Assembly: GCF_019008365.1 (NCBI RefSeq)
Contig: NZ_JAHHUL010000007.1
Span: 112,362 to 144,361 of the forward strand
Direction: 5' to 3'
Origin: Phosphitispora fastidiosa
GTDB taxonomy: Bacteria > Bacillota > Thermincolia > Thermincolales > UBA2595
Length of the DNA stretch: 32,000 bases
A program made the position numbers and the translations under genes. Shown piece after piece: positions 10,359 to 32,000 of the stretch. The first letter of the stretch is position 1. Each line of letters starts with the position of its first letter. Below the pieces are notes generated by a model that was not told the DNA's origin, searched no databases, and was given only the letters and a program-made list of their open reading frames with translations.

Positions 10359-10375
10359 TGTATAGGGGTGATAAA

Positions 10376-11161: not shown

Positions 11162-11478
11162 ATAAATATTGGGACACCAGCTTTTTTGGAGAGGATTCTG
11201 CTGAGGTGATAAAAGGAGACAGAAAAAATGGCATATAAGCCAGAGGTTTGATGGGGGTTGGCCCTTTGGTCCCAGGAGGAATGATAAGACAAAAGAGCAC
11301 CCTTATCTGGTGCTTTATAAGGAACTGCCAGACTTACTTAATAAAAATTTACCTATCAATCTATCACTCCAGAACACTGGGGAAGCAATTCAACCCAGTC
11401 CTATAACCAGCCTCACAATGATTGAAGTCAGTAGATTTTATTCTTCTGTAAACATTTAATAAAGAAAAGGGGCCTGTT

Positions 11479-13272: not shown

Positions 13273-13307
13273 GGTATACGGTAGAAATATAAAAACCGGG
13301 AGGTCTT

Positions 13308-15110: not shown

Positions 15111-15169
15111 GAGTTCATAGACAATAACATGGTAGGATATACTAATACCTTTTATTGGGGGGTTGTTTT

Positions 15170-18049
15170 TTGAATGTATTCCTAAGTTATGGTCATGATG
15201 CATATGTTGAGTTAGCTAAGCGTATTAAAACTGATTTAGAAGCACAGGGGTATAAGGTTTGGTTCGACGAAGACAGGATAAACACAACTCACGATTGGGA
15301 AATCTCTATTGAAAAAGGGGTTATTACTTCTGATTGGATAGTAGTCTTAATGACTCCTCATTCCATGAGACGGCCTGACGGAGTGTGCTTAGATGAGCTT
15401 AGTTATGCCCGTTTCCTGGGCAAACAAATTGCCCCAATTATGGTTAGAATTGTACCACCACCTCTGTCTATAGCGCGGATTCAGTGGTTGGATATGCAAA
15501 ACTGTGTGTCTGATGAAACTGGAAAGATTAACGAAGAGCTTTACCAGGACAAGCTTCGCACCCTTTTGAAAACGCTAAATGGCGAATTTGCTCTTGGTTT
15601 TGAAGGGGAACAAGCCAGGTTGCGAGATATCTTAAGGCCCTTAGATAATGAAGCGGATATTGACCGTCATATAAAAGATTTCTATGGACGCCAGTGGATG
15701 TTTGATGCTTTCAAAAAATGGGTAACCGGAGATTTTTCGTCAAGAATTTTTTGGGTTAAAGGAAAAGCCGGCGTAGGGAAGACGGCTTTTGTTGCAGCAC
15801 TTTGCCATAGGGAACCGGTTGTAGTAGCGGTTCATTTTTGTAAGTTCAATGATAATGAGCGAGCAGATTCAAAGAAAGCAATCAGTTCAATATGTTATCA
15901 GCTTGCAATGCAATTACCTGAATACCAAGCAGCGTTGATTGATTTGCCAGAATTAAACATGCTAAGAGAAAAAAATACTAAGAATCTTTTCAATTACCTT
16001 TTGGTTGAGCCATTACGTTCCATTACTAATCCCGGCAAAAGAATGGTTATTGTTATAGATGCTCTTGATGAAGCTTCATGGGGTGGTAAAAACGAATTGG
16101 TTGATGTTTTAACTCAAGAATTTGATAGTATTCCAGAGTGGCTTGGAATTGTGGTAAGCTCCAGGCCTGAACCCGAAATGCTTCGAAAATTATCTAAGTT
16201 TAAACCATATGAATTAGACAATATGGATTTGAGAAATATGGATGATATTAGAGGATATTTTTCGGCCAAACTCTCAAATTATTCTTCAGAGGGACATAAA
16301 GAGGCTGTTGTTCAGAAACTTGTAACTAAAAGTGAGGGTATATTTTTATATGCCCAAGAGGTAATAAAGGAAATTGAGATCAAAAGACTTTCATTGGATA
16401 ATGTTGATGATTTTCCTACGGGACTTACTGGTATCTATCTTAATTACTTTGAACGCCAATTTCAGGATTATAAGTTTTATCAAGAATTAATCCGGCCATT
16501 ATTTGAACTTATTTCTGTAAACTTTGAACCCTTAGCTGTAAATGTTGCTGAAACAATTTTAGGCTGGGATGAATATGACCGGGACGATATATTAGAAAAA
16601 ATAAGCACAATTTTTCCGCTTCGGCAGCTTTGTATTGAGCCTATTCATAAAAGTGTGGTTGATTGGATGACTGATTCGGGGAAAAGTGGCCGTTATCGGA
16701 TAAGCGCCAAAAAGGGCCATCAACGGTTTAGCGATGGTTTATGGAAATTATACAAGAAAGACTTGAATCAACTTCCGGCTTATGGAGTTAAGTATATGGT
16801 ATCTCACTTACTGTTTATCGAAAAGTGGGATGAGTCCATTGAGGCTCTAAACGATTATAGTTTACAGGAAAAGCGTATCAAAATTGTTAGCTTGGATAGT
16901 GCAATGAGAGCGTATTTCATGGAACTTAATCAGGTTTTTATGTTAAGGCCGGAGTTAGTAACTATAGTATTAACTGGAGAGACTTTTCAGTGCCTAATGG
17001 CATTACATAGAAGGTATCTTTACGACTCAGGTTTATTTCTTGATCTTCAGAAAATGGGATTTGATAAAATTCTGGCAGAAAAAAAAGAATTTTGGTTACC
17101 TAAAGCTGAAGTTGCTTGTGCTTTTTATTTATATTTAACGGAAAATTTTATAGAAACTATAGAAAGAGCAAAAAAAATACAGAACTTCGGTATTGTTGAT
17201 AATACAAATACATTGCTGCAATCTGAGTTATACAACCTAATAGGTCTTAATTATAGAAAACTGGCTTGTTTTCAAGAAGCCCGTGATTCATTTGAAAAAT
17301 CAATACAACTCGCTGAATCATCAGGAGATTTATATGAAGCCTCCGCAGGATATATGAATATTGCCAAACTAAATTACCATATGCTCGATTTTGAAGACGC
17401 CTATATGAATAATAATAAAGGGATAGCTCTGTTAACAGAACTGCTGGAATCTAAACTGAAGAGCAATGCTGGTGAGTGTACCAGTTTAAAGCTATTTCTG
17501 GCCGAATATCACCGCCTAGCTGCTGAGACATATCAATGGAACGAGAAAATTAAGGAAGCACTAATCCACCTAGAAATTGCCGGCAATATTTATAAGGAAA
17601 CTAAAGTACGCGACCGGTATTATGTTAGGTGGCTGTATACTTCTGCTTTTCAGCAAATATTGTCAGGTGATTATCATTCGATTAGAAACGATTTTCATTA
17701 TATTACAGGCCTAATCAAGAACGAGTATGACCGGTCGAGAGCGTTCTTTACTGCAAGTTTTGCTAAACTGCTTGAATTTGGTCATACTGGCAACGGAAGG
17801 GTGCTGAGTGATGCAGGCCTGTATGCCAAGGAAGCAATAAAACGGGCAAAGTCAATTAACGCAGTGATTGAAGAACAGGAGGCACAGGTACTGTACAACA
17901 TAATTGCTAAAAAATCCGGAGAAAAGGCGAATTATGAACTCCCTCATGGGAGTAAACAATATATAAAGGATTGGGTTATTTACGTAAATAATTATATCTC
18001 CAAATTTCTAAGGAGGGTGTTAAAACATGAAGATAATATTTTTGGGTAG
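15170..18049 (+). CDS. TIR-STAND (NACHT-like P-loop NTPase)-TPR/helical-repeat protein
   Basis: TIR pattern VFLSYGHD...KVWFDEDRI...VVLMTP...CLDELSYA. Walker A GKAGVGKTAF and Walker B MVIVIDALDEA, plus VVSSRPEP, and a helical-repeat C-terminus. The TTG start at 15170 is preferred (7 nt after GGGGGG, and aligned with the paralogue's start); the track start is 15155. Confidence 0.85.
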   Translation: MNVFLSYGHDAYVELAKRIKTDLEAQGYKVWFDEDRINTTHDWEISIEKGVITSDWIVVLMTPHSMRRPDGVCLDELSYARFLGKQIAPIMVRIVPPPLSIARIQWLDMQNCVSDETGKINEELYQDKLRTLLKTLNGEFALGFEGEQARLRDILRPLDNEADIDRHIKDFYGRQWMFDAFKKWVTGDFSSRIFWVKGKAGVGKTAFVAALCHREPVVVAVHFCKFNDNERADSKKAISSICYQLAMQLPEYQAALIDLPELNMLREKNTKNLFNYLLVEPLRSITNPGKRMVIVIDALDEASWGGKNELVDVLTQEFDSIPEWLGIVVSSRPEPEMLRKLSKFKPYELDNMDLRNMDDIRGYFSAKLSNYSSEGHKEAVVQKLVTKSEGIFLYAQEVIKEIEIKRLSLDNVDDFPTGLTGIYLNYFERQFQDYKFYQELIRPLFELISVNFEPLAVNVAETILGWDEYDRDDILEKISTIFPLRQLCIEPIHKSVVDWMTDSGKSGRYRISAKKGHQRFSDGLWKLYKKDLNQLPAYGVKYMVSHLLFIEKWDESIEALNDYSLQEKRIKIVSLDSAMRAYFMELNQVFMLRPELVTIVLTGETFQCLMALHRRYLYDSGLFLDLQKMGFDKILAEKKEFWLPKAEVACAFYLYLTENFIETIERAKKIQNFGIVDNTNTLLQSELYNLIGLNYRKLACFQEARDSFEKSIQLAESSGDLYEASAGYMNIAKLNYHMLDFEDAYMNNNKGIALLTELLESKLKSNAGECTSLKLFLAEYHRLAAETYQWNEKIKEALIHLEIAGNIYKETKVRDRYYVRWLYTSAFQQILSGDYHSIRNDFHYITGLIKNEYDRSRAFFTASFAKLLEFGHTGNGRVLSDAGLYAKEAIKRAKSINAVIEEQEAQVLYNIIAKKSGEKANYELPHGSKQYIKDWVIYVNNYISKFLRRVLKHEDNIFG

Positions 18050-18776
18050 CGGTGGTTGGATTCCTACCTTTAAAAGGCAGACATGTAGTTTTTTATTGAT
18101 TACCGATAGAAATCTTATATTACTCGATGCTGGTAGTGGCATTTGGCACCTAGGTAATCATACCGATTTACTAAAAAAGTACAGTAAACTAGATATTATA
18201 TTCAGCCATTACCATCTTGACCATGTAATGGGCTTAGCTTTTCTCCCCAATTGGGTTAAAGGATTAACTCTTAATATTTGGGGACCGGGTAAGAAATTTT
18301 ATTGTAACAAATGTGAGGACATTTTAACTCAACTAACATCATCACCTTATTTTTCGCTTCCCATTCAACGTTTTTCAGATGAAGTCATTATTAATGATTA
18401 TGATTTAAACGGGTTTAATATTGGTAATTTAGCTGTTGAGATTACTGCCCAGCAGCATAGTGACCCCTCTTTTGGGATAACTGTTAACGGCTTATTACAT
18501 TATGCAACCGATACGACAGTATTGAAAACTACATTTGAAAAAGCGCGTGATGTCAAATTACTTCTCCATGAATGCTGGGATATTGATAGGGTGGAAAAAT
18601 CTGAGCACTCATCGTTGGATGAAATTGAAGAGATGCTCTCTAATTATGAAGTACCCCTGACAGGACTTATACACATTAATCCCAACTGGGGTCAATCGGA
18701 ATTTGATAAAGCCATCAAGAGAATCAACGGTAGTAAGATATTCCTTGCTAGAGATGATATCGTTGTTAATTTATAA
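18027..18776 (+). CDS. MBL-fold metallo-hydrolase (RNase Z / phosphodiesterase-like)
   Basis: KIIFLGSGG...LLDAGSG...SHYHLDHVMG (HxHxDH motif). RBS AGGAGGG. The gene overlaps the upstream STAND gene by 23 nt. Confidence 0.8.
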   Translation: MKIIFLGSGGWIPTFKRQTCSFLLITDRNLILLDAGSGIWHLGNHTDLLKKYSKLDIIFSHYHLDHVMGLAFLPNWVKGLTLNIWGPGKKFYCNKCEDILTQLTSSPYFSLPIQRFSDEVIINDYDLNGFNIGNLAVEITAQQHSDPSFGITVNGLLHYATDTTVLKTTFEKARDVKLLLHECWDIDRVEKSEHSSLDEIEEMLSNYEVPLTGLIHINPNWGQSEFDKAIKRINGSKIFLARDDIVVNL

Positions 18777-18807
18777 TTATTAGTTTTTTAAATACGGGTG
18801 ATGAGGG

Positions 18808-19590
18808 ATGGATCTAAAACTTGAAAAAATTATAAATGCGGTTATATCTGCTGGAAAGATTGTTTCTTCCAGTATTGGGGATGAAAAATTGATTAAAGAA
18901 AAATCCTATGCTAATTATGTTACAAATATAGATTTGCAGGTCAGCGATTATTTAACAGGTTTTTTGATGAAAGAAGGTTTTACAAACCAAGTCATTACTG
19001 AAGAAAATGAAGTCACGCAATTTGATTTTTCGGAGCCGGTTTGGATTTTAGATCCTATAGATGGTACGACAAACCTGGTTCATGATTATCCTCACTTAGC
19101 TATATCACTGGCCTTTTATGATAGGAAGGGAATATTTGGGGTTATTTATAACCCTATTACTGAGGAACTATTCCATGCAGAGTCAGGTAAAGGAGCCTAT
19201 TTAAACGGAAAGAAAATCAAAGTGTCAAACAATGCTTATCTGAAGGATTCTTTGATAGGGTTTGGATTTCCTTACAACCGTTAATTTACATCGGCGACTT
19301 TTTTTGCTATACAAGATGTTTACTCTGAAAGCCATGATTTACGCAGGACTGGGTCAGCTGCCTTGGATCTGGCATATGTGGCATGTGGTCGGCTAGATGG
19401 TTATTTTGAGATTGGTCTAGGGAGTTGGGATGTTGCCGCTGGAGCGATTATTGTCTTGGAAGCTTGCGGAAAAGTTACGAATTGGCAGGGAAAAGATTGG
19501 AGATTGCGTAAAACTAATAATATAGTTGCCACTAATGCCTTTATTCATGATGAAATATTAAATTATATTTCTGATAAAGGAATAATCTAA
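18808..19590 (+). pseudogene. Inositol monophosphatase (SuhB/CysQ) family gene interrupted by a single in-frame TAA at 19282-19284
   Basis: The two track ORFs (18808-19284 and 19363-19590) are in the same frame. Read-through gives ...[64 protein letters not shown]... This has the spacing seen in E. coli SuhB between its GFPF and [14 protein letters not shown] motifs. N-terminal motifs are EEN and WILDPIDGTTN. Confidence 0.8.
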
Positions 19591-19642
19591 AAGAAATACG
19601 TTTTCTCACAGAAGGAATTAGAAACCTAAGGGGGTCACCAAT

Positions 19643-20641
19643 ATGACCGAAGACCGCAAGGGGAGAAACAGGGACAGGATTAAAGCTTTGGAGGAAATCT
19701 TCAGGGACTGCTACACTGCGGACAGAGAAATATCCATGAGTCAAATAATTGAGCAACTTATCTTACGTGGTATCAGTGCCGAAAGACGGACAATTTATTC
19801 TGATATAGATTTACTGAATGAGATCTGGGATTACAATATAGAAAGAACCTATAGAAAATATAAAGTCACCCGTGGCAGTGGATTCAATGAGGAAGAACTC
19901 CAAATAATCATAGATGCTCTCCTTTCGGCCAGGTTTATTTCCCGGGAAAACACCAGGGAGTTAATTAATAAGCTGCAGGATACCCTTGCTGTCAAGAAGG
20001 AAAAAGGTGCCCTCAACAAGATCAGGGTACAGGAAAGGGTCAAGTACAGCAACAGGGCGATAAAGGAAAACATCTCACGAATAAATGAAGCCATGAGGAA
20101 AAACAAAAAGATTGGGTTTGAATACTGGAAATACATGATGGGACCAGAACCGGAAATGGTCAGGAAAGACTGCCTGGCAAGCCCTTATGGGGTTGCGTGG
20201 TATGAAGATTTTTATTATATGCTGGGTAATTATCAGGAAAAAAGACTGTCATATTACAGGATTGACAGGATGAACAACGTTGTCATTACAGAAGAGCCGC
20301 GGGCAAGCCTTTACGAGGTAATGGGGCGGCATGAACAGTTAAACATAGGTGACCTTTTAAGCAAGCTTGTTTCTCCTGCTTCCGGTGATGAGACCGGAAT
20401 TTCCTTAAGGGTTGACAAGGCTTATCTGGCCCAGGTAAGGGACAAGTTCGGGGACAGGATCAGGGTCAGGGATGAGAATAGCAGAGAGGCCAAGGTCGAT
20501 GTTACCGTAATCAATAATAAGAAGCTTATTCCCTGGATATTGAGCTTCAGAGAAGGAGTAGAGGTCCTTTATCCCAGGGAATTAAGGGAAAGGATAATCT
20601 CAGTGATTGATAAAATGAAAGATAAATACTATGATGAGTAA
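19643..20641 (+). CDS. WYL-domain transcriptional regulator (HTH-WYL-C-terminal extension; BrxR/CapW-like architecture)
   Basis: 332 aa with RBS AAGGGGG. It has an N-terminal HTH-like region and a central PYGVAWYEDFYYMLGNY...YRIDRMNNV WYL-type segment. Confidence 0.7.
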   Translation: MTEDRKGRNRDRIKALEEIFRDCYTADREISMSQIIEQLILRGISAERRTIYSDIDLLNEIWDYNIERTYRKYKVTRGSGFNEEELQIIIDALLSARFISRENTRELINKLQDTLAVKKEKGALNKIRVQERVKYSNRAIKENISRINEAMRKNKKIGFEYWKYMMGPEPEMVRKDCLASPYGVAWYEDFYYMLGNYQEKRLSYYRIDRMNNVVITEEPRASLYEVMGRHEQLNIGDLLSKLVSPASGDETGISLRVDKAYLAQVRDKFGDRIRVRDENSREAKVDVTVINNKKLIPWILSFREGVEVLYPRELRERIISVIDKMKDKYYDE

Positions 20642-20649
20642 ATTTTAGG

Positions 20650-22450
20650 GCGTAAAGCTCTTTTTTTTTGCCTTGTTTTAAGTGTTCGTTTTTTTGTACA
20701 GTAAACCTGGTACACTGCCATTAGACCAGAAAAAATATTAACGAGGAGCATTCCTGTAATAAACAAAAATGAACTTTGAAAAAAGAAGTACCTCACGATA
20801 GAATTGAATTGTGCGATTTGGCCAAAGCACAACAAATCAAAACTACGGGAGGTACCTAAAATGAAGTATACCCAGAATGAAAAGATTCTGCAAGTCACAG
20901 AAAGCACTTTGATTATCGGCGTGGACATAGCCAGCGAAATACACTATGCAAGAGTCTTTGACCAGAGAGGCATCGAATTAGCTAAACTGATTAAATTCAG
21001 TAACGATGCCGAGGGGTTTAAAGAATTTGTCTCATGGGCCGAGGAAATCAAAGACAAGAACAACAAGCATAAAGTAATGGTCGGCATGGAGCCAACAGGT
21101 CATTATTGGTTTAACATAGCTCCTTATCTTAAGGATCACGGAATTAAAATAGTGTTGGTGAATCCGTTTCATGTAAAGCGGAGCAAGGAACTGGATGATA
21201 ACAATCCAACCAAAAATGATCGTAAGGACCCAAAGACCATAGCGATGCTCGTAAAGGATGGTCGATACATGGAGCCGTATATACCGGAAGGAATATACAG
21301 CGAATTAAGGACCGCCATGGAAACACGCTGGCAGATAGTGAAGCAGCTAAACGTAATAAGAAACCGCGTAAAGCGGTGGATTAGTATATACTTCCCTGAA
21401 TTCAACAGAGTATTTGGTGACTGGGAAGGGAAAGCCTCATTGATAATATTAAAGGAGTTCTCAACACCTGCCAAGCTAATTGAAAAGGGCATAGATGGCA
21501 TTATAGCCAGGTGGAAGCAAGATAAACTGAGAGCAGTAGGAAGAAAGCGAGCAAGTGCGCTGATTGAGGTTGCCAGGACCTCTGTCGGAGTGAGAGAAGG
21601 GCTGGTTGCTGCAGAGAATGACCTTGCAATACTGATTGAAGACTATGAAATGAGAATGCAGCAGTACGAGCGGACCCTGCTTATGATTGAGCAACTTGCG
21701 TATCAAATACCAGGAATGCTCGAAATCCTTAAGATAAAAGGTATTGGCCTTGTTACAGCAGCAGGCTTCATAGCAGAAGTTGGTGATATCAGTAGGTTTG
21801 AGCATCCGAAGCAGATACAGAAACTGGCTGGTCTAAGCTTAAAAGAAAATAGCTCTGGTAAACACAAAGGCAAGACAACGATCAGTAAACGGGGCCGAAG
21901 GCGGTTAAGGGCTTTACTATTTCAAGGAATCATGCCGGTGGCAGCTAAAAACCCAGAGTTTCGTGAACTGCACAGCCACTATACCACCAGGAAAAAGAAC
22001 CCGCTAAAGAAAAAGCAGTCTTTAATACTGTTGAGCTGCAAGTTAATCCGAATATTTTTTGCATTGCTAACAAAAGGCGTAGCGTATGACCCACAAAAGA
22101 TGATTAATGATATCAAGAGACCCTTATTACAGGAAGCTGCTTAAGTAAAAAAGTCTCATGCAATCGCAGGTTGAACATTGACAAAACGAGCCGGGATTAG
22201 TCAGGTTGAATCAATTCCATAAGGGCACAAGACCCAGTCGAAGGAGCACAACTGACATCCACCTCATGGGCAGGCAGAACGAAGGAATTTAGGGCACAGA
22301 CCCTGTGAGACATGGGAGGGTTGCCGCCGGAGAACAAGTGGATACCATCGGCCGAAATAAGCGAAAAACTCATAGGGCTTATTAAGGTCAACCTTGTTCA
22401 TCCAGATATATGCAAAAATAGGCATATTGCCCAGATGGCTCGTTTTGAAA
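20650..22450 (+). mobile_element. IS110-family insertion sequence (boundaries approximate)
   Basis: Contains the DEDD-type transposase gene with long non-coding flanks. IS110 elements lack classical terminal IRs, so the ends cannot be fixed from one copy. Confidence 0.6.
20861..22144 (+). CDS. IS110-family (DEDD) transposase/recombinase
   Basis: ATG at 20861 follows GGGAGG. The IGVDIASEIHY, VGMEPTGHYW, NPTKNDRKDPKTIA and IKGIGLVTAAGFIAEVGDISRF motifs are typical of the Transposase_9 and Transposase_20 domains. Confidence 0.9.
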   Translation: MKYTQNEKILQVTESTLIIGVDIASEIHYARVFDQRGIELAKLIKFSNDAEGFKEFVSWAEEIKDKNNKHKVMVGMEPTGHYWFNIAPYLKDHGIKIVLVNPFHVKRSKELDDNNPTKNDRKDPKTIAMLVKDGRYMEPYIPEGIYSELRTAMETRWQIVKQLNVIRNRVKRWISIYFPEFNRVFGDWEGKASLIILKEFSTPAKLIEKGIDGIIARWKQDKLRAVGRKRASALIEVARTSVGVREGLVAAENDLAILIEDYEMRMQQYERTLLMIEQLAYQIPGMLEILKIKGIGLVTAAGFIAEVGDISRFEHPKQIQKLAGLSLKENSSGKHKGKTTISKRGRRRLRALLFQGIMPVAAKNPEFRELHSHYTTRKKNPLKKKQSLILLSCKLIRIFFALLTKGVAYDPQKMINDIKRPLLQEAA

Positions 22451-23269: not shown

Positions 23270-25438
23270 ATGTCTGAACTGGAATACCTGATAGATAGGT
23301 TAATAAAGTTGGCCAGAAAAAACGCTTCAGATACCGGTCTGTCGGCAGTGGAGTCCGGCCTGCCGGTCTTCACCGAGAGAACAGTAACCTACCTCTTGAG
23401 GGAAGCCTTCAGAAAGGGTGACCTTGGGAAGTCGTTCCGGATAGCCCGGGCCCAGAAGAATTTACGCCTAATGGCCCGGGTGGGCCGGATTTGGCTGAAA
23501 ATGGGTCAGAGGGATTTCGGCCTGAAAGCAGCTGTAGAATCCGGGGATGACCTGTTATTAAGGGATATTATCTCAGAACAGTGTAAAACCGGTGATGTGT
23601 TTGGGGCTTTATCCCTGGCCGGGAGTATAAAAGACCGGCGGATCAGGAATTATGCATGTGGGCAGATCGCCCAAAAGTATTTGGATCTGGGCCTTATAAA
23701 AGATGCCATTAACCTTATCCAGGGCATAGAAAACCCTGCAGACCGTTTTGATGCGGAGAAAGAAATGGCAGGGTGGCTTTTTGATGCAGGCTATTCAGTT
23801 GCTGCCCTGAGAATGGCCTCAGGTATTGAGAATGAAGGCTGCCGGGTAATGGCCATGGGAGGAATCCAGGCGAAAGTACAGGCAAAAATACAGGCAACAG
23901 TCCGGGCAACAGGTCAAAAATGCCTTGGTTACTGCAGGAAAACCCTTAAAATACTTGACACAGTCAACCAAAGCGGCTATAAGGGTCCTTGCATAAGGGA
24001 AACAGCTCTAAGCCTGCTTTTAATGGGATATCCCGGCAAGGGGCTGGCATTAATAAACAGGATTGAAGATCCGTTCGAAAAAACTTACGCCCTGGCCGAA
24101 GCATCGATAAAGCTTTTGCAGATGGGATTTGATAGAACCGGGGCATTACGCGCTTTGAAGTGGTGCCAGGACTGTATGGATAAAATGCAGGGCCTTAATT
24201 ATAATGTTTATATTACTGTTGAAGAGCCGGCCCGTTATTTTTCGATGTCTGATGATGAACATGCCAGGGTAATCTCCCATGAGCATCATTTCATGCTGGA
24301 TTTATTTGCTGATGGGGAAAAAATGATTGCGACCCTGTTAAAGCTTTCCTTCATGCTTCATGAATTGGGTTATACCGGCACAGCGTATCAGGTACTGCAA
24401 AAAGCGGTGCAGGTTAATGAAAACAGCCGTACTTACCTGGAAGACCACTCGGGCAATAAAATCCATGACTGTGACAACCTGGATAGGCTTATTTCCGAAA
24501 TGTTAAGGCAGGGATACGGCGAAGAGGCCTTCAAATTAGCAGCAGAGCTGGATACGGTACGACTGGTAAAAACATCATCAATACTATACCAGACGGGATA
24601 TGCGGATTTTGCGGCAGACCTCCTGACTGCCTGTGTCCGGGATGACAATGAACCTGGTGATATGCTCAAGTTATCCCATGAGTTATACAACCAGGGCCAG
24701 CCTAATGCGGCGGTAAAATGCCTGGACAGGTGCCTTGATAAATGTATCAATGAATATATTAAGTCTTCCGGTAATTCAGGCGGACTGGAAGAACTGTATG
24801 AAACCATGTTAGAAATATCATGGGAGTACAGCAGGCAGGGCAACCGGGGCAAGGCGCTTGAACTGCTGGATAAGTGTGTGAAGTTCGGGGTGTCAGGGGA
24901 CAATGCAAAGGCTGGGACATATTGGGCGATGTGCGGCTGCAGGGACTTCCGCTTAAGGGTTTTCCATGAGTGCCTGAAAAGGGAGTATTATGACGGGGCC
25001 TTTAAAATTTTAAGGCATTGTATCGAAGGACTGAGTGGAAGCCGTGAATACACCCAAAATAGTGAGCATATCACTGAACTGTCCCTTTTGCTGGAGAAGT
25101 CCTGCAATGAGACTGAAGCGGGCATAGCCAGTAATAAGGCTGGTTTGGATATGGTTCTTGAGGTTTTGGAATTATTGGAGGAAACAGCTGTTCCCCCGGA
25201 AACCAAACAATCCGTATACATAGACTTTATCGGCCGTATTCACCTGTACAAAAAGCGCCTGCCGGAGATTGCTGTCCGGCTGGCGCCTATGGTGTCAAAG
25301 CACAGGGAAACAGTGTTGTTATTATTGTACGCCTGTGCTGTATATGTGAGGTTTTATTCGGGATACGGTCCTTCTGAAGTGAACAGAATTTTGACTAAGG
25401 TCAGCAAAGTGATTGATGTCCATGAAATGTTTGTTTAG
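23270..25438 (+). CDS. Large alpha-helical repeat protein of unknown function (722 aa)
   Basis: Long clean ORF with RBS GGGAGAGAGG. Shows recurring ~35-aa helical-repeat-like periodicity and a short QAKVQAKIQATVRAT low-complexity tract. Confidence 0.7.
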   Translation: MSELEYLIDRLIKLARKNASDTGLSAVESGLPVFTERTVTYLLREAFRKGDLGKSFRIARAQKNLRLMARVGRIWLKMGQRDFGLKAAVESGDDLLLRDIISEQCKTGDVFGALSLAGSIKDRRIRNYACGQIAQKYLDLGLIKDAINLIQGIENPADRFDAEKEMAGWLFDAGYSVAALRMASGIENEGCRVMAMGGIQAKVQAKIQATVRATGQKCLGYCRKTLKILDTVNQSGYKGPCIRETALSLLLMGYPGKGLALINRIEDPFEKTYALAEASIKLLQMGFDRTGALRALKWCQDCMDKMQGLNYNVYITVEEPARYFSMSDDEHARVISHEHHFMLDLFADGEKMIATLLKLSFMLHELGYTGTAYQVLQKAVQVNENSRTYLEDHSGNKIHDCDNLDRLISEMLRQGYGEEAFKLAAELDTVRLVKTSSILYQTGYADFAADLLTACVRDDNEPGDMLKLSHELYNQGQPNAAVKCLDRCLDKCINEYIKSSGNSGGLEELYETMLEISWEYSRQGNRGKALELLDKCVKFGVSGDNAKAGTYWAMCGCRDFRLRVFHECLKREYYDGAFKILRHCIEGLSGSREYTQNSEHITELSLLLEKSCNETEAGIASNKAGLDMVLEVLELLEETAVPPETKQSVYIDFIGRIHLYKKRLPEIAVRLAPMVSKHRETVLLLLYACAVYVRFYSGYGPSEVNRILTKVSKVIDVHEMFV

Positions 25439-25451
25439 CCTTTATACCCAG

Positions 25452-28046
25452 TTAGTCCTGGTCCAGTCTGTAAATCTCCATTCCGGCGTCTTTGAGGATA
25501 TTCTGGTAATTAGTAACGAAGTCCACATCATATTCCCTTATTTCTACTGGAAGGTCGGACCAGGCCACGAGATGGGGGGATATTTTTTTGTCTACATCCT
25601 TTTGCTCTCCATACCGCCAGCCGCTGTTAAGCCTTTCTATGACCCATCGTCCATGTTCCATTATAGCCATCTCTTCAATTTGTGACGGTGTCAGTTCCAC
25701 AAGGCAGGGTTCTGTGGTAGTGTTTCTTATACCATACCCGCAGCTTCTTAGGATTTCTGCCATGTATTTTATGTGATGCCTGTTGGATAACTTGAGGTCC
25801 TCGTTGAGCTTGTCCCATGTTTTACGGGATGCTTCAGTGGGCTGGGTGGTATTAAGGTAGTGGGCATGTGCTGCCTGTGCTGCCTTTTCGACCTGTTCCT
25901 CAGCAAGGAAGGGCTGTGTTTTCTGCATAATAAATGCTCTGATTATCATGGGGTCAGGGGGAAGGCTGAATAGATAATTGCTGCCACCAAAGGCGGCATC
26001 TGTGGTAATTTGTGAAGCAGTGCTGCCAGCGGAACCGATAACAGCGACCCTTGCGCCCAGGGCCAGGGCCAGCTTGTATTCCAGTGCGGAGATGGTGCCT
26101 CCGCCAATACCCAGTACAGAAACTTCTGATGGTTTAACCCCTTGGGAAACCAAGTCCACCCAGTACTGAACCGGCTCTCCGGGTCCGAAACCGTGGTCAG
26201 GGGAGCAGAAGATACTGTCATAATTGTCGTCCCGTGTTGCGTCAAATGGAATTGTTTTTGGAAGGTATCCAAGCAGGCAAACAGCAATTCTGCCGTCCTT
26301 TCTCAGCTCATTTACCAGCTTGCCAACCATGCCAGGGACGCCGGAAGTGATGCCTCCCGATATTATTGTGCCCCGGAACCCTTTCAATACCTGCAGTAAA
26401 TCGTTACAGAGGATTGGACAATCTTCATCCAGACCGCTGCTGGTACTACCGGCTATGATCAGTACCGGCCGGTCAAACCCGGTGGTTTTGGCAGCGAGGC
26501 TCTTCAACACTTCCAAGGACCGGGGACTCTTATCTTCAAAGAGGCAGGCCTTCCCCACGTGCAGCACATTGGTTATCCAGGCAAGTTCAGCCGTGGTTTT
26601 ATATCCAAGTTCAGTATTTTTAAGGAACGCCAGTTCATTGTCAAAGGCCTCCTTAAAAGAGTCTTCAAAGTCGTCTTTAAAGTTACTGATATCTTTTTCC
26701 ACTTTCAAGGAGTTGCAGTAATGGATGGCGTTGATATAAGATTCCAGACTGTTTGTATATACACCAAGAATATAAAAGAAACGGCCCATAGTCAGGTATG
26801 CCCTGAGGATCTCAATACCGGCGCTGATATGGGCTTTGCAGGTAGTGATGGCCTCGTTTATGCTGTTTTTTAGCAGGGGGAAATAATCCTCTTCTTCAAT
26901 AAACTGCTCAATACAGTCTGCCAGGAAGTATGGGTTTTGCGGGTCTTTTTCGAAAGCCTGCAGGTTAAGCTGTCTGGCTGTTTTTTTATTTTGAAGCAGT
27001 TTTTGAGTCCAGGCCAGGGCTGACAGCGCCCTGGCCTGAAGAAGGTATTCTTCTTTGGTAATGGGTGCCGGACACATGCTATATTTATCTGGCAGAGCAA
27101 CATAGCCGATATATTGTTGACCTGTGTGGAATTCTTTGCTGTCAGGCTTTTTTTTGTGCTTCATGCATAAAGCATAACCCAGTTCCAGAAAAACCTGGGC
27201 CTTAAGATAGGGATTATCCATTTCGTCAACAGCCAAGCTTTGCAGGACCTCTACGATTGTATCCCATTTTTTGATAACCTCCGCGATTTTGGCTATCCGT
27301 AAGGCCAGGCCCGGTTTATTCTTTTTAGACTGCTCGTTATTAAATACGGTTTTCAGTGTTTCTATCTCGTTAGCAATATCAACCAGGTTAGAATATGTAT
27401 TGTAATTTAGTTGATAGGAATCAATAGACTGCACGAATTCACCAAACAAACTGTCGGCGTTTTCCATTAAGGCGGCCAACCTGGCACTGTCACGCCTGAG
27501 CTTGCCGGGGACACTGAAGTTACTCTTATAGATGCGGTCATGGGTTATATCTGACCATGCATGCTGAAGTATGGTACGGATCTGGATTTCGGCTTTCCTA
27601 GGCCCGATGGATTCAGGTATATCAATACCCAGTACCGGCTTTTGAGGCAGGGATATGACATAGTGGACGGAACGGTAGCCGAACTGGTCCTTCTGCAGGC
27701 GGGAACTGACATCCAGGCTGTTTTCCCAGTCAATAATAAAATTTGCTTCTATAAACTTGCTGATGGCATCAACCTGGGCCAGGGTATGGGTAATTACCCG
27801 GGCCCCGCATAAATCGGTGAACTGATAAGCCGGTTGACTATACTTGGACCGCTTTCTGACTGCCTTCTCAGCAAAGCTCGACAGATTCTTTGCCCTGGCC
27901 TGAACTATGGCATTGGGAGCATATGAATCACAGGCCTTCTCCAGAATCTGCCTTAAGATGCCGGCATATTCTTTATAAAAGCTATATTCTTCAGAGTACT
28001 TATTAATCTGCTCCAGGTGCCAGTTTTTATCAATTGTTGATGACAA
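25452..28046 (-). CDS. RelA/SpoT-type nucleotidyl (pyrophospho)transferase fused to a helical linker, a SLOG (LOG-like) domain and C-terminal tandem RyR domains
   Basis: TTG start 6 nt after GGGAGGTG. Synthetase motifs: LCGARVITH, FGYRSVHYV, EIQIRTILQHAWSDITHDRIYK. SLOG motifs: LIIAGSTSSG...ISGGITSGVPGMVG...GIGGGTISALEYKLALALGARV. RyR motif: MEHGRWVIERLNSGWRYGEQKDVDKKISPHLVAWSDLPVEIREYDVDFV. Confidence 0.85.
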   Translation of the reverse strand: MSSTIDKNWHLEQINKYSEEYSFYKEYAGILRQILEKACDSYAPNAIVQARAKNLSSFAEKAVRKRSKYSQPAYQFTDLCGARVITHTLAQVDAISKFIEANFIIDWENSLDVSSRLQKDQFGYRSVHYVISLPQKPVLGIDIPESIGPRKAEIQIRTILQHAWSDITHDRIYKSNFSVPGKLRRDSARLAALMENADSLFGEFVQSIDSYQLNYNTYSNLVDIANEIETLKTVFNNEQSKKNKPGLALRIAKIAEVIKKWDTIVEVLQSLAVDEMDNPYLKAQVFLELGYALCMKHKKKPDSKEFHTGQQYIGYVALPDKYSMCPAPITKEEYLLQARALSALAWTQKLLQNKKTARQLNLQAFEKDPQNPYFLADCIEQFIEEEDYFPLLKNSINEAITTCKAHISAGIEILRAYLTMGRFFYILGVYTNSLESYINAIHYCNSLKVEKDISNFKDDFEDSFKEAFDNELAFLKNTELGYKTTAELAWITNVLHVGKACLFEDKSPRSLEVLKSLAAKTTGFDRPVLIIAGSTSSGLDEDCPILCNDLLQVLKGFRGTIISGGITSGVPGMVGKLVNELRKDGRIAVCLLGYLPKTIPFDATRDDNYDSIFCSPDHGFGPGEPVQYWVDLVSQGVKPSEVSVLGIGGGTISALEYKLALALGARVAVIGSAGSTASQITTDAAFGGSNYLFSLPPDPMIIRAFIMQKTQPFLAEEQVEKAAQAAHAHYLNTTQPTEASRKTWDKLNEDLKLSNRHHIKYMAEILRSCGYGIRNTTTEPCLVELTPSQIEEMAIMEHGRWVIERLNSGWRYGEQKDVDKKISPHLVAWSDLPVEIREYDVDFVTNYQNILKDAGMEIYRLDQD

Positions 28047-28049
28047 TGT

Positions 28050-28484
28050 TTACACCTCCCCTTTGATGCTGAGTAAATAATCTAAAGCCTTCCTGTATTT
28101 CTCATGCCGTTTATAGCTTTTAGAGGTTGGATCTTTAATCCTGTTCAAATCAAGGTTGTCTGTCAGATCAGCGATCTTAACAGCAGTGGCCAGGGGGTTA
28201 GCGGATACTTTTAATAAGTACTGATCATATGGTTCGTCTTGATGGCGGGTAAGGCAGGACAGCGCCTCTATAATGTTGTCAGGTACTCCTTCTTCCCTGA
28301 GCCTTTCGGGTGAGCACCCTCCGTCTTCGATGGTATCGTGAAGCACTGCGGTAATCATTTCCTCTTCATTTGAAGTATTCAGCATTACCCTGAGACAATG
28401 CAGCATATATGGTTTTCCTGCCTTGTCCTGCTGGCCCTCATGTGCCCGGGCAGCAAGAATGACGGCTTTTTCCAGATTAAACAG
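28050..28484 (-). CDS. Small HD-domain alarmone hydrolase-like protein (SAH-like); start uncertain, possibly CTG at 28484
   Basis: The track ORF starts at ATG 28406, but the frame stays open upstream to a TGA at 28491-28493. That extension encodes NLEKAVILAARAHEGQQDKAGKPY, the conserved first His segment of RelA/SpoT-type HD hydrolases. LHDTIEDGG lies downstream. RBS AAGGGAG lies 9 nt before CTG 28484, and there is no ATG/GTG/TTG in between. Confidence 0.7.
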   Translation of the reverse strand: MFNLEKAVILAARAHEGQQDKAGKPYMLHCLRVMLNTSNEEEMITAVLHDTIEDGGCSPERLREEGVPDNIIEALSCLTRHQDEPYDQYLLKVSANPLATAVKIADLTDNLDLNRIKDPTSKSYKRHEKYRKALDYLLSIKGEV

Positions 28485-28576
28485 AAAAAATCACTCCCTT
28501 AAGCAGGTAATTTACAAATAAATGGAGAAAATCCACGAATATTATAATTCGCCAAATTATAGCAGTTTCCTTTTGG

Positions 28577-29332
28577 TTATATCGCGGCAGCAATCAGGAT
28601 GCGGCGAAACGGGTAGAAGACTTCCCCGGATGGACAATACTGCCTGGCTTTGACACGATACCTTTGGACAAAGGTATTATGAATCTGTTGTGGCAGGCAT
28701 TCAAAATAGGGGAGAAGTACAGTACCTGAAACCCAATCAGTCAGGGCGTCAATATTTTCTAATATATGTGGATAGACCTTTTCTATAACGGTTATTTTTT
28801 GGCAGCCGAAATCGTGCAGAATTGTTGCATATTGATTAATGGAGAGAACCGGGGATACTCTGAACCACTGCTTTAGTATGGTGCGAAACGGTTCCTCTCG
28901 GGCAACATCAGCAACAAGTCCGTGAGAAAGATAATTCTCACAAGACGGTATTTGAAGGGCTAGCTGTCCGTTTGGGTTGAGAAGTGAGAGCAGTTTTGGA
29001 ATCAGTTCCTCATGACTATCGACCCACTGGATGGCTGAGTGAGAAAAAACCAGGTCCCAGCTTCCGGTGGCATTTTCAATAGACCGAAGTTCAAAATCTA
29101 ATCCCGGGCATGCAAATTGAACTGATTGTGCCAGCATCTCTACTGAGGAGTCTATTCCGAGTACCTTCCCATCCGGAATCATATCAAGTATTTTTCTGGT
29201 CAGTTCCCCTGTGCCGCAGCCCAGGTCTATAACCTTCATTCCTGGATTAACAGTTATCATATTTATCAGGTCATTAAAGGGTTGGAAACGTTCTGCTTTA
29301 AATTTCAGGTATGAATCAGGATTCCAAACCAT
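28577..29332 (-). CDS. Class I SAM-dependent methyltransferase, trans-aconitate methyltransferase (Tam)-like
   Basis: MVWNPDSYLKFKAERFQPFNDLI at the N-terminus, and VIDLGCGTGELT as motif I. RBS AAGGAGG lies 7 nt upstream. Confidence 0.8.
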   Translation of the reverse strand: MVWNPDSYLKFKAERFQPFNDLINMITVNPGMKVIDLGCGTGELTRKILDMIPDGKVLGIDSSVEMLAQSVQFACPGLDFELRSIENATGSWDLVFSHSAIQWVDSHEELIPKLLSLLNPNGQLALQIPSCENYLSHGLVADVAREEPFRTILKQWFRVSPVLSINQYATILHDFGCQKITVIEKVYPHILENIDALTDWVSGTVLLPYFECLPQQIHNTFVQRYRVKARQYCPSGEVFYPFRRILIAAAI

Positions 29333-29645
29333 TCAGCGGCCTCCTTAATATTTAGTGTACCTAAATTGTTGGCCGTTTTTTTGCACATCAGATATATTAC
29401 CTTAAATATATGATATAGGCACATCGTGCCGGTGTAAATGGGTTAGTACCAAATTCTTACCACGGAAAAGGGAGTTTGTGTGTTAAAGCTGAAGAGGGAG
29501 AAGTAGTAATACTTGAAATTAAAGACGGTAAAGACGGTATAGAGGAATTCTTTCCCAAAGAAAGAATGATGGATGAGTCTGGTGATGGCGATGACTTTTA
29601 AGTTTGCGTGGATTTGGGTACAGGAAATTTTCGGGAGGGATAGTA

Positions 29646-32000
29646 TTGAACATTTTTTTAAGCTACGGGCATGATGAATACTCAAAGCTGGCCAGGAGGA
29701 TTAAGGCCGATCTGGAAGTAGAGGGGTATCACGTGTGGTATGACGAGGAGAAGATCAAGAATACCCATGATTGGGAGATTTCCATTGAAAAAGGTATTAC
29801 CCTGTCAGATTGGGTAGTTGTTCTGATGACCCCGCACTCAATGCGGCGCCCTGACGGGTATTGCCTGGACGAGCTGAGCTTTGCCCGTTTTCAGGGAAAA
29901 CCGATCGCTCCCCTAATGGCCCAAAATGTAGTACCGCCGCTATGTATTGCCAGGCTCCAGTGGCTGGATATGCAGAGGTGTTTCGACCAGAATACGGGAG
30001 AAATCAATGAACCGGTATATGCAGAGAAATACCAGGCCATATTGAAGGCAGTCAGGGGCGAGTTTCAACTGGGGTTCGAGGGTGAACTGGCCACTCTTCG
30101 GGATATTCTGAGGCCGCTTGATAATGATGTGGAGATTGACCACAGAATTAGGAATTTTACCGGGCGGGAGTGGGTATTTGAAGCTTTTCGCAACTGGCTG
30201 GAACATGATTCATCCAGGGTTTATTGGATACAGGGGAAAACAGGGGTGGGGAAAACAGCCCTGGCCGCTAAACTGTGCCACCAGGAGCCATCAGTGGTTG
30301 GGGCTCATTTCTGTAAATATAATGACAGCACCAGGTCTGACCCTAAACGGGCCATATGTTCCCTGGCCTACACCCTTGCTACACAGGTGCCGGGATATAT
30401 GCAGAGACTGATAGAAGACAAAGAGTCAAAAAAAATTGACGAAATGAATCCAGCAGCCCTATTTACATACCTGTTGGTGGAAAAACTGAATAAAGTAATT
30501 CCGCCCCGGGGACGAAAAGTCCTCGTAATTGATGCTCTTGACGAGTCAGAGATGCAGAGCCAGAACGGTTTGGCAGACATATTGGCTTCCCAGGGTGAAA
30601 CTCTGCCCAAATGGCTGGGGATAGTAATTACCAGCAGGCCGGAATCCCGGCTGCTGAGGGTTTTTTCAGGTTTGCGCACGCCACTGATAATGGAATATGA
30701 TGATGCCAGAAACATTAGGGACATAAGGGAGTTTCTAAACAAAAAACTAACTGCATTCGGGGATGCAGCCCAGGTCCCGGGAGCGGTTGATAAGCTGGTG
30801 AGTAAAAGCCAGGGGAATTTCCGGTATATTGAGACGGTATTGAAGGAATTTGAGAAAGGCACCATGGATTTGACCAGGGTTGATGAATACCCCGAAGGAT
30901 TAAACGGGGTATATACACTCTTGTTTGAGAGGCAGTTTCCTGACATTGAGAAATATGCAGGAAATCACCGGAGATTGTTTGAACTGATTGCAGCTACTGT
31001 GGAACCACTGGAAACCAAAATGGTTGAGAAAATACTGGGCAGGGATTATGAGGTCGATAAAACAGTGCTGTCCCTGGGGTCCCTGTTTGATTCAAGCAAA
31101 GGCAGAATTGAGCCCTTTCATAAAAGTGTTATCGAGTGGCTTATGGATCTTTATAAGAGCGGTGAATACAGGGTAAGAGTAAATAAGGGACACGAAGCTC
31201 TGGCCAGGCATGGGTTAAAAGAATACCAAAGGGGCCTGAAAAAAATGTCCCCCTATCTGAGGGACCACCTGCCGGTTCATCTGGAACGCCTGATAGATGA
31301 GGCTATTGAAGACGGGGATATTGACATGGAACATTTTAGCCATATGGAAGAAGTGTGCCGCAATCTTGCTGATAATGCATATAAAAGGAAACGTTATTCT
31401 ATTGCTGGGCAGGGTTATGCTGTTGCATTAAGGGCGGGTCAGGAATTGCTAAAAAATGAGTCAGGGAATGTCGGACATTTGAAGCTTGTCTTAGAGACCG
31501 CTTATTGTGCGGGTAGGTGCTGGAAGGCTTACGGCAGCTTAAGTGGTGCTTTACCTTACTATCATGAGGCTGAAGACATATTGAAAAAACTGTGTGAAAT
31601 GGAACCTGAAAACAAAGATTATTTGAAAAGTTATTCAAAAAACTGTACAGAATTAGGTGATATCTATCGTTCTTTGGGTAACCGGGTGAAAGCCCAGAAA
31701 TATTACGAGAAATCGCTGGCTATTGATGAGGCCCTGGTTGAGCTAGACCCTGACAGTGCGGAATATAGGCGGGGCGTGTCTGTAAGCTATGAAAGACTGG
31801 GAGACTATCACGAAAGCCAGGGAAACGGCGCGAAGGCCCTGGAATATTACCAAAAATCGCTGGCTATTGATGAGACCCTGGTAGAGCTTGATCCTGACAG
31901 TGCGGATTACCGGCGGGACCTGTCTGTAAGCTATAACAAACTGGGAGATTATCACAAAAGCCAGGGTAACGGCGCGAAGGCCCTGGAATATTACGAAAAA
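29646..32000 (+). CDS. TIR-STAND (NACHT-like)-TPR protein, paralogue of 15170-18049; 3' end outside the window
   Basis: This ORF is not in the track because it has no stop inside the window. I translated it by hand: TTG at 29646 lies 7 nt after GGGAGG, giving NIFLSYGHDEYSKLARRIKADLEVEGYHVWYDEEKI...CLDELSFA. Walker A is GKTGVGKTAL, Walker B VLVIDALDES, plus ITSRPES. The frame stayed open to 32000 across 30360-31709 (translated codon by codon), and the start and final 300 nt read in frame; 29900-30360 was read less carefully. It ends in TPR-type repeats. Confidence 0.85.
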   Translation, partial: MNIFLSYGHDEYSKLARRIKADLEVEGYHVWYDEEKIKNTHDWEISIEKGITLSDWVVVLMTPHSMRRPDGYCLDELSFARFQGKPIAPLMAQNVVPPLCIARLQWLDMQRCFDQNTGEINEPVYAEKYQAILKAVRGEFQLGFEGELATLRDILRPLDNDVEIDHRIRNFTGREWVFEAFRNWLEHDSSRVYWIQGKTGVGKTALAAKLCHQEPSVVGAHFCKYNDSTRSDPKRAICSLAYTLATQVPGYMQRLIEDKESKKIDEMNPAALFTYLLVEKLNKVIPPRGRKVLVIDALDESEMQSQNGLADILASQGETLPKWLGIVITSRPESRLLRVFSGLRTPLIMEYDDARNIRDIREFLNKKLTAFGDAAQVPGAVDKLVSKSQGNFRYIETVLKEFEKGTMDLTRVDEYPEGLNGVYTLLFERQFPDIEKYAGNHRRLFELIAATVEPLETKMVEKILGRDYEVDKTVLSLGSLFDSSKGRIEPFHKSVIEWLMDLYKSGEYRVRVNKGHEALARHGLKEYQRGLKKMSPYLRDHLPVHLERLIDEAIEDGDIDMEHFSHMEEVCRNLADNAYKRKRYSIAGQGYAVALRAGQELLKNESGNVGHLKLVLETAYCAGRCWKAYGSLSGALPYYHEAEDILKKLCEMEPENKDYLKSYSKNCTELGDIYRSLGNRVKAQKYYEKSLAIDEALVELDPDSAEYRRGVSVSYERLGDYHESQGNGAKALEYYQKSLAIDETLVELDPDSADYRRDLSVSYNKLGDYHKSQGNGAKALEYYEK
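31701..32000 (+). repeat. Tandem 144-bp (48-aa) coding repeats in the TPR sensor region
   Basis: Units starting at 31701, 31845 and 31989 (TATTAC...ATCGCTGGCTATTGATGAG...) are ~85% identical at the DNA level by eye. A more diverged unit lies upstream from ~31560. Confidence 0.8.

Follow-up and report, generated by a model that had tools for sequence, protein, structure and literature searches.

A two-gene module on the minus strand of the Phosphitispora fastidiosa genome was found to combine a RelA/SpoT homologue (RSH) synthetase, two putative nucleotide-binding modules and a separate hydrolase. The module lies in a stretch of 32,000 nucleotides (assembly GCF_019008365.1, contig NZ_JAHHUL010000007.1, positions 112,362 to 144,361 of the forward strand), which is called the window below. 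It consists of an HD-domain hydrolase gene (28050..28484) followed by the gene of an 864-residue protein (25452..28046). In the large protein an RSH synthetase is joined to a TPR-like region, a SLOG domain and two RyR repeats, and the HD protein bears the residue signature of the Aph1 type of (p)ppApp hydrolase. The interpretation favoured here, which is given slightly better than an even chance, is that of a Thoeris-like effector that would turn a nucleotide signal into alarmone synthesis, with the product degraded by the partner hydrolase. The family would then represent an uncharacterised variant both of Thoeris-type effectors and of toxic small alarmone synthetases (toxSAS) with hydrolase immunity, associated with TIR/STAND conflict systems.

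Architecture and spread of the large protein

In the list of open reading frames (ORFs), the gene of the large protein runs from a TTG start at 28046 to a stop at 25454-25452, and its product is 100% identical to an NCBI entry of P. fastidiosa named 'RyR domain-containing protein'. An AlphaFold2 model was built on an alignment of 33 full-length homologues (35-53% identity), from which the conservation figures below were also derived. The model reached a predicted local distance difference test score (pLDDT) of 85.9 and a predicted TM-score (pTM) of 0.79, and it divides the protein into five parts, namely the alpha/beta synthetase, a stretch of paired helices about 300 residues long, a domain of Rossmann-like fold and two helix-helix-strand repeats.

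The synthetase domain, of the RelA/SpoT pyrophosphokinase type, occupies residues 1-215 (27402..28046, minus strand) and was assigned by Pfam, by conserved motifs and by profile and fold matches to RelP and RelQ. Pfam RelA_SpoT (PF04607) was matched at residues 51-176 with an E-value of 9e-16 and 58.6 bits, passing the cut-off of 27. The motifs GARV (residues 81-84), YRSVHYV (124-130) and EIQIRT..QH.W (153-164) are invariant or nearly so in the 33 homologues, and R51, K53, K61, D78, G81, R83, Y124, H128, E153, Q155, R157, Q161 and H162 are invariant in all of them. Against solved structures, the profile of this domain found RelP and RelQ at 1e-20 to 1e-16, CapRel at 2e-4 and FaRel2 at 0.7. Foldseek likewise returned RelQ and RelP, with E-values of 3e-6 and above and target TM-scores of 0.62-0.81. 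Together these results identify the large protein as an RSH synthetase whose predicted active site is intact and which is fused to two modules predicted to bind nucleotides.

The synthetase is followed by an all-helical, TPR-like linker or scaffold at residues 216-520 (26487..27401, minus strand), delimited by the secondary structure of the AlphaFold2 model and by TPR matches. TPR proteins (SPY, OGT and a consensus TPR) were among the fold matches of this region, and homologues have TPR matches in Pfam.

The SLOG domain at residues 521-707 (25926..26486, minus strand) was recognised by the LSDAT_prok profile and by its fold, and it carries the glycine loops GGITSGVPGMVG and GIGGGTISALE. In the window protein, LSDAT_prok (PF18171, "SLOG in TRPM") matched residues 526-685 at 1e-4 and 22 bits, under the cut-off of 25.4; the cut-off was passed by the homologues P0148 and P0121 (26.8 bits), and PF18171 is present in many homologues. 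When the SLOG profile was compared with the PDB by sequence alone, nothing significant was found and TRPM entries appeared only at an E-value of about 1. The domain was assigned to the TRPM (LSDAT) type because fold comparison settled what the PDB sequence search could not. When the SLOG region was modelled on its own (pLDDT 88.9), the best Foldseek matches were the MHR1/2 domains of TRPM2, TRPM4 and TRPM8, with E-values of 3.5e-6 and above and query TM-scores of 0.51-0.69; the carrier protein MCP was also among the top matches. The matches included entries of TRPM2 bound to ADP-ribose (ADPR), a ligand of TRPM2 MHR1/2. Furthermore, the SLOG domain of ThsA has been published to bind 3' cyclic ADPR (3'cADPR).

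The C-terminus is formed by two RyR repeats, both on the minus strand, of which the first (residues 708-780; 25707..25925) is degenerate and the second (residues 781-864; 25455..25706) is matched by Pfam RyR and by RyR R12 entries of the PDB. RyR (PF02026) was found at residues 789-858 with 4e-10 and 40.3 bits, passing the cut-off of 27.4. The first repeat was identified by hhalign against the second (probability 97.5%, E-value 5e-12), and it keeps H727, Y730, W744 and N755. The C-terminal fold matches the RyR Repeat12 domain (RyR3 R12) across 173-197 columns. In a 2026 preprint (PMC13232231), the binding or cleavage of 2'/3'cADPR by RyR-domain proteins of phages was traced to H75, W78, H100 and D117. 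Residues H798, W801 and D840 of the second repeat, which are equivalent to ligand-contact residues of RyDEP and RyR R12, are conserved in 33, 30 and 32 of the 33 homologues, respectively. The position of RyDEP H100, which contacts the ligand phosphate, is occupied by Ser in 27 of the 33 and by His in five.

A sequence-only reading of the window had described intact synthetase motifs, a helical region of about 300 residues, a LOG-like SLOG domain with GGGTISALE and two RyR repeats. These features were all recovered by the analyses above; in the SLOG domain the assignment and the motif stood, and the likeness to LOG gave way to the TRPM (LSDAT) type.

The architecture is not confined to P. fastidiosa. 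A word-indexed protein search returned 577 relatives, and the best 120 of them are nearly all 800-990 residues long and cover at least 98% of the query. The hosts among these 120 belong to Chloroflexi, Acidobacteria, Thermodesulfobacteriota, KSB1, Hydrogenedentes and other phyla. An exhaustive search with the last 364 residues (SLOG plus RyR) gave 487 representative clusters at 50% identity with E-values of 1e-30 or below. These clusters come from many phyla, mostly from sediment, peat and freshwater metagenomes, and most of them share the overall length and layout of the window protein. The survey of domain architecture proposed along with the sequence-only reading thus uncovered a large family across phyla and not a one-off. 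A misassembly, raised in the same place as a possible source of the fusion, was rejected on the basis of homologues and base composition: the same domain order occurs in hundreds of full-length homologues, and the composition is even. In P0151 and P0243 the SLOG-RyR cassette precedes a Ser/Thr protein kinase domain, on its N-terminal side, instead of standing C-terminal to an RSH synthetase. The cassette is therefore regarded as a portable regulatory unit.

No description of the RSH-TPR-SLOG-RyR architecture was found in the literature searched; Burroughs et al. 2015 (Nucleic Acids Research), who reportedly defined SLOG and LSDAT, may list it. PADLOC assigned the family to none of its known Thoeris types, and a systematic survey of TIR systems makes no mention of it. 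Membership in the PADLOC candidate family PDC-S33 was rejected, since the match at 4.6e-16 covers only positions 33-175 of the 349 in the profile. Sequenced plasmids and phages yielded RSH genes of 340-380 residues with 35-41% identity but no full-length copy.

The partner hydrolase and the predicted product

The two genes are closely joined. By direct reading of the minus strand, the stop codon of the HD gene (TAA, 28052-28050) is followed by the spacer ACA and then by the TTG start (28046-28044) of the large gene. The Shine-Dalgarno sequence GGGAGGTG of the large gene (28053..28060, minus strand) lies within the final HD-gene codons, 6 nt before the TTG. Both the distance of 3 nt between the stop and the TTG and the ribosome-binding site inside the end of the HD gene had been described from the letters, and the direct reading agrees.

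The start of the HD gene itself needed revision. The gene (28050..28484, minus strand) comprises 144 codons and a stop, with CTG 28484 as its likely start and a Shine-Dalgarno-like AAGGGAG at 28494..28500, 9 nt upstream of the CTG by direct reading. The two-gene unit had been drawn at 25452-28493, but frame translation showed that 28493-28491 is an in-frame TGA and that the open frame of the HD gene begins at 28490. CTG 28484 occupies the same codon position in the alignment as the TTG start in L083, the closest homologous locus, and the ATG start in L058. The CTG is thus likely to be the true start and to give a complete protein, and it appears to have arisen by a TTG-to-CTG change relative to the closest homologue. 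The sole canonical start, ATG 28406, sits past the conserved N-terminus (LEKA..A.AH.GQ.DKAG.PY..H), so that a full-length protein is possible only from the CTG with its good Shine-Dalgarno sequence and a truncated product of 118 residues would result from the ATG. This ATG was rejected as the start, because it would cut off 26 codons that are conserved between this gene and Aph1, among them those of the first metal-binding His and the specificity Asp D20. GTG 28494 was also rejected: only a miscounted T6 run would bring it into frame, and no spacer separates it from the Shine-Dalgarno sequence. The NCBI annotation (WP_231683529.1) records 118 residues from ATG 28406 under the name "GTP pyrophosphokinase"; both the start and the name look wrong, and the annotation is corrected here to that of an HD hydrolase. 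Promoter and terminator scans of the locus gave results no better than those for shuffled sequence.

The HD protein was matched over residues 4-137 to Aph1, '(p)ppApp hydrolase' of PDB 7SMG, at an E-value of 6.6e-33, and the motif LHDTIED is present. The (p)ppGpp hydrolases in the PDB were matched only at about 1e-5, and Pfam HD_4 at 2e-6. According to Ahmad et al. 2023 (PMC10083569), (p)ppApp hydrolases are distinguished by D24, R96, D116, R119, K133 and Y134, all 12 of the 12 purified Aph1 homologues hydrolysed ppApp, and (p)ppApp synthesis is growth-inhibitory in known systems. At the corresponding positions the window HD protein has D20, K92, D112, R115, K129 and Y130, five of the six being identical and the sixth a conservative change from R to K. 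The signature, with conservative changes, was also found in the HD proteins of L083, L084, L058 and L007, the partial copy of L084 covering only the last four signature positions. The HD protein is hence assigned to the Aph1 family and predicted to be specific for (p)ppApp, which refines the earlier description of it as an alarmone hydrolase. In MuF toxins, linkage to a signature-bearing aph1 gene has been taken as evidence for adenosine 3'-pyrophosphokinase activity (PMC12226406). Because the linked HD protein has both the Aph1 match and the signature, the synthetase of the window probably makes (p)ppApp.

In other loci of the family a different enzyme takes the place of the HD protein. The neighbourhood was sampled in 80 metagenomic loci found by an alignment-based metagenome scan, and the neighbouring ORFs were clustered; the 48 loci whose two flanks each exceed 600 bp were counted as informative. 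The commonest neighbour is a Nudix gene of about 150 residues, mostly directly upstream on the same strand and at times directly downstream. Its product matches PF00293 at 1e-21 to 1e-23, with MutT and NudG as the closest models, and the PADLOC defence-candidate family PDC-S07 at 5e-24. An adjacent Nudix gene is present in 34 of the 48 informative loci and missing from 14; no adjacent hydrolase was found in 14 of the 48 (about 30%). An HD gene occupies the Nudix slot in the window, in its closest relatives L083 (52% identity) and L084 (46%), and in L058, where it lies directly downstream; no Nudix gene was found in the window locus or in L058. Furthermore, P0228 is a single protein of 1025 residues with NUDIX, RelA_SpoT, TPR, SLOG and RyR domains, a fusion of the usual operon partners. 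Two unrelated hydrolase folds thus stand in the same operon position, which argues for a shared task. Nudix enzymes have been reported to hydrolyse (p)ppGpp to pGpp.

These observations bear on a first alternative, in which the two genes form a classical toxSAS pair: toxicity of the large protein would be constitutive and could stem, for instance, from pyrophosphorylation of the tRNA CCA end as in CapRel and FaRel2, the HD protein would be a type IV antitoxin, and the C-terminal domains would be secondary. The genes are translationally coupled with the hydrolase first and the synthetase second, as such a pair would have them, and the closest stand-alone RSH relatives (35-47% identity) are genes of 340-380 residues found on plasmids, prophages and a phage satellite, or coupled to a small alarmone hydrolase (SAH). 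PDC-S33 reaches the domain at the E-value given above, and the SAH antitoxin ATfaRel neutralises every toxSAS tested in PMC7229694. However, the 14 informative loci that have no adjacent hydrolase are hard to fit with an essential antitoxin, and the hydrolase start in the window is a weak CTG. The C-terminal region of about 650 residues, conserved across phyla with invariant ligand-pocket residues, argues for the main regulator instead of a secondary part. The profile reaches CapRel and FaRel2 only at the levels reported for the structure search, the Aph1 signature indicates a soluble adenine nucleotide, and a protein of 864 residues in five structural modules is not a small single-domain synthetase. 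The classical pair is accordingly regarded as improbable, although it is the alternative that survives best.

Since about 30% of loci do without the hydrolase and the copy in the window starts with a weak CTG, an essential antitoxin is hardly to be expected, and a strict toxin-antitoxin arrangement is unlikely. The hydrolase more probably serves to buffer or reset the system. Of the earlier cognate-hydrolase reading, the alarmone hydrolase remains and the obligatory antitoxin becomes unlikely, with hydrolase-free loci in the sample and Nudix as the usual partner.

Two short relatives, made up of a small alarmone synthetase (SAS) only, were among the matches listed in a scan of genome contigs with the single window protein. 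In L001 (7971-9553) and L002 (7872-9454), an RSH protein of about 350 residues, 41-47% identical to the synthetase domain of the window, is translationally coupled to an SAH of 174 residues. The SAHs by these short stand-alone SAS genes carry ordinary (p)ppGpp-type residues instead of the Aph1 signature. The two loci look like uncharacterised toxSAS-SAH pairs in metagenome-assembled genomes of Spirochaetia and Clostridia.

TIR/STAND neighbours and the proposed mechanism

A TIR_2- or DUF4062-STAND gene was found within 7 kb of the synthetase gene in at least 22 of the 51 loci for which over 3 kb of flank was available, often directly adjacent and on the same strand. The count was made with a strict motif and is hence an underestimate, and the adjacency is seen far too often for chance, given how rare these genes are. 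In another 14 loci a neighbour of about 860-930 residues was found in which a STAND-like P-loop NTPase lies between an uncharacterised N-terminal domain and a RyR domain at the C-terminus, as at L069 1252-4035 and L007 954-3545 (minus strand). In the window, a divergent TIR_2-STAND(NACHT/NPHP3_N)-TPR gene was identified by its Pfam domains at 29595..32000 on the plus strand, its open frame leaving the window. The product of this gene is a candidate for the upstream sensor and signal generator. The link to a TIR-STAND gene, suggested earlier from the window alone, thus recurs across the family, even though the gene of the window is divergent.

As the hydrolase does not seem to act as an essential antitoxin, it is probably the C-terminal region of the large protein that keeps the synthetase inactive, as the C-terminal region of CapRel does in that protein. 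In the mechanism proposed here, of which the product, the activating ligand, the direction of signalling, the toxicity and the immune role are predictions, the TPR-like region, the SLOG domain and the two RyR repeats of the two-gene module would serve as built-in sensor and brake of the RSH pyrophosphokinase. An adenine-nucleotide signal would bind to the SLOG and/or RyR pockets and release the synthetase; the signal would most plausibly be an ADPR-derived product of the neighbouring TIR-STAND proteins. The released enzyme would move pyrophosphate from ATP onto the 3'-OH of adenine nucleotides and make (p)ppApp. This synthesis would drain ATP and ADP and lead to growth arrest, as with known (p)ppApp toxins, and the Aph1-type HD protein, or the MutT-like Nudix protein in most members, would remove the product of leaky or finished activation. 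A widespread bacterial immune pathway can be sketched on this basis, in which an ADPR-derived signal of TIR- or DUF4062-STAND proteins would act through the cassette of SLOG and RyR Repeat12 on a (p)ppApp synthetase to cause shutdown, with Nudix or Aph1 enzymes setting the threshold; this wider scheme is put forward tentatively and is on balance doubtful.

Several findings weigh against the Thoeris-like effector and its (p)ppApp product. The closest solved structures to the synthetase domain, RelP and RelQ, are (p)ppGpp synthetases, and the profile search of the PDB with this domain matched no solved (p)ppApp synthetase. A tRNA ending in adenosine 3'-pyrophosphate is a possible alternative product. 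The Aph1-type partner is limited to a minority clade and the usual Nudix protein is generic and MutT-like; by analogy with the Nudix module of TRPM2, it could degrade an ADPR-type signal rather than the product. The Aph1-like gene of L007 overlaps and is coupled to the RyR-NTPase gene, not the synthetase gene. Roughly half of the long-flank loci show no TIR or DUF4062 gene, and the DUF4062 N-termini, compared with TIR_2 by hhalign in shallow alignments, gave a probability of 5.7%. In the window, the divergent TIR-STAND gene does not share an operon with the HD gene, and a methyltransferase gene lies between the two.

A second alternative, rated below the classical toxSAS pair and likewise improbable, is a non-immune regulator of stress or metabolism, in which (p)ppGpp or (p)ppApp would be made on sensing NAD(P)-derived nucleotides, ADPR or ATP and turned over by Nudix or HD enzymes, the TIR-STAND genes being coincidental. 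It can draw on the fact that RelP and RelQ are housekeeping enzymes, on the many loci without a TIR gene and on the absence of full-length copies from the plasmids and phages searched. According to PMC10083569, Aph1 homologues are found in a variety of genomic settings, and (p)ppApp may have physiological roles. Such a regulator is hard to reconcile with the adjacency of TIR- or DUF4062-STAND and RyR-STAND NTPase genes, which is recurrent, often on the same strand and far above chance for rare genes, or with the match of the partner Nudix protein to the defence candidate PDC-S07. The window is a dense island with three TIR genes (9135, 15155 and 29595), two RyR genes, a WYL/WCX regulator and an IS110 transposase, and the variation of partners and fusions from locus to locus is typical of conflict systems.

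In the third and least probable alternative the signal is reversed or converted, so that the synthetase would issue a second messenger, either (p)ppApp or an ADPR derivative pyrophosphorylated at the 3' position, to components such as the STAND NTPases or RyR-NTPases, and Nudix or HD enzymes would terminate this signal; RyR domains on several neighbours (the RyR-NTPases of 14 loci and the TrkA_N-RyR protein of the window) may mark receivers that share a ligand, the coupling of the L007 Aph1-type gene to a RyR-NTPase gene fits a shared messenger, and the catalytic pair H and D of the RyR domain is retained, but no downstream effector is consistently present, many loci hold only the Nudix and synthetase genes, and (p)ppApp synthesis alone inhibits growth in the known systems described in PMC10083569.

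The remaining genes of the window are as follows. A gene for a Tam-like S-adenosylmethionine-dependent methyltransferase (28577..29332, minus strand; Pfam and NCBIfam) lies upstream of the HD gene on the same strand and may be co-transcribed; it was rejected as a component of the system, being absent from the conserved neighbour clusters. On the other side, a TPR-containing protein of 722 residues (23270-25438, plus strand) is encoded convergently to the synthetase gene, with 13 nt between the stop codons, and no terminator-like site was found between the two genes. The TIR-STAND gene at 29595-32000 has a paralogue at 15155-18049, also on the plus strand. Both are TIR_2-NPHP3_N/NACHT-TPR genes, 50% identical in the TIR and NTPase parts, and both retain the C-L-D-E-L motif that holds the position of the TIR catalytic Glu. 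Their C-terminal repeat regions are unrelated, as expected for diversifying sensors. A run of plus-strand genes at 9135-15110 encodes a TIR_2 protein (9135-10358), a methyltransferase (10358-11161), a protein with NAD-binding TrkA_N and RyR domains (11479-13272) and a protein of 600 residues with a weak DUF2207_C match (13308-15110); the run may be a second TIR-plus-RyR system. The plus-strand region 18027-22144 holds a gene of metallo-beta-lactamase fold, an ORF of 158 residues of the inositol-monophosphatase family that covers about half of the profile, the WYL/WCX regulator (19643-20641) and the IS110 transposase (20804-22144). In L084 a WYL/WCX gene likewise adjoins a TIR-NACHT gene. In L029 (5344-7410), a phosphofructokinase protein of 689 residues (PF00365, 6e-51) is encoded directly downstream of the family member and before a DUF4062 gene; a neighbour with this domain is unusual for a conflict locus.

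Relation to known systems and significance

The module shares features with several systems and is identical to none of those compared. With type I Thoeris, which consists of the TIR protein ThsB and the SIR2-SLOG protein ThsA, it has in common the fusion of an effector enzyme to a SLOG domain, the nearby TIR genes and the expected outcome of growth arrest or abortive infection. In the best-studied case the SLOG domain of ThsA binds a cADPR isomer made by the TIR protein. The effector of the window differs in being an RSH pyrophosphokinase and not a SIR2 enzyme, and its SLOG domain is of the TRPM (LSDAT) and not of the ThsA type. In addition, it has two RyR repeats, a TPR-like region and a dedicated hydrolase gene, and the TIR partner of the family is usually a large STAND NTPase and is sometimes missing.

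With FaRel-ATfaRel and Apk2-IapK-Aph1 the module shares the genetic coupling of a synthetase of RSH fold to an HD hydrolase that destroys the product, and the hydrolase of the window has the Aph1 signature. Those toxins are small, stand-alone or delivered polymorphic toxins controlled by protein partners or by secretion, whereas the synthetase of the window bears about 650 residues of nucleotide-sensor domains. The hydrolase of the family is often a Nudix protein or missing, and no binding immunity protein like IapK was seen.

CapRel(SJ46) resembles the large protein in that one polypeptide holds both an RSH toxin domain, at its N-terminus, and an autoinhibitory sensor region, at its C-terminus. 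In size, CapRel(SJ46) is similar to the closest stand-alone relatives of the RSH domain of the window, which are single genes on mobile elements. CapRel(SJ46) uses a small zinc-finger-like domain to detect a phage capsid protein, and it acts by modifying tRNA; in contrast, the C-terminal region of the window protein is made of small-molecule-binding folds (SLOG and RyR), and the linked hydrolase indicates (p)ppApp.

Among animal ion channels, TRPM2 (SLOG/MHR1-2 with the Nudix module NUDT9H) shares the SLOG fold, which binds ADPR in TRPM2, and the pairing of SLOG with Nudix. RyR Repeat12 and RyDEP share the R12 fold, which binds adenine nucleotides in RyR3 and 2'/3'cADPR in RyDEP. The output of the window protein is an enzyme and not an ion channel as in TRPM2 and RyR, and the His that contacts the ligand phosphate in RyDEP (H100) is Ser in most members of the family.

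This large family has not been studied so far, and the clusters counted above were found with its SLOG-RyR cassette alone. It places bacterial RyR domains in a cellular context, at a time when the binding of cADPR isomers has only just been reported, and for phage proteins alone. Given the parallels to TRPM2 and RyR Repeat12, it also offers a tractable soluble model for the way in which SLOG and RyR folds read ADPR-type ligands. If the proposed reading is true, alarmone (RSH) toxins would be joined with TIR/Thoeris nucleotide signalling, fields that have so far been separate, and (p)ppApp would gain a regulated role as an immune effector. Under the wider, more doubtful scheme sketched above, two regulatory modules of Ca2+ channels, those of TRPM2 and RyR, would originate in bacterial immune sensors.

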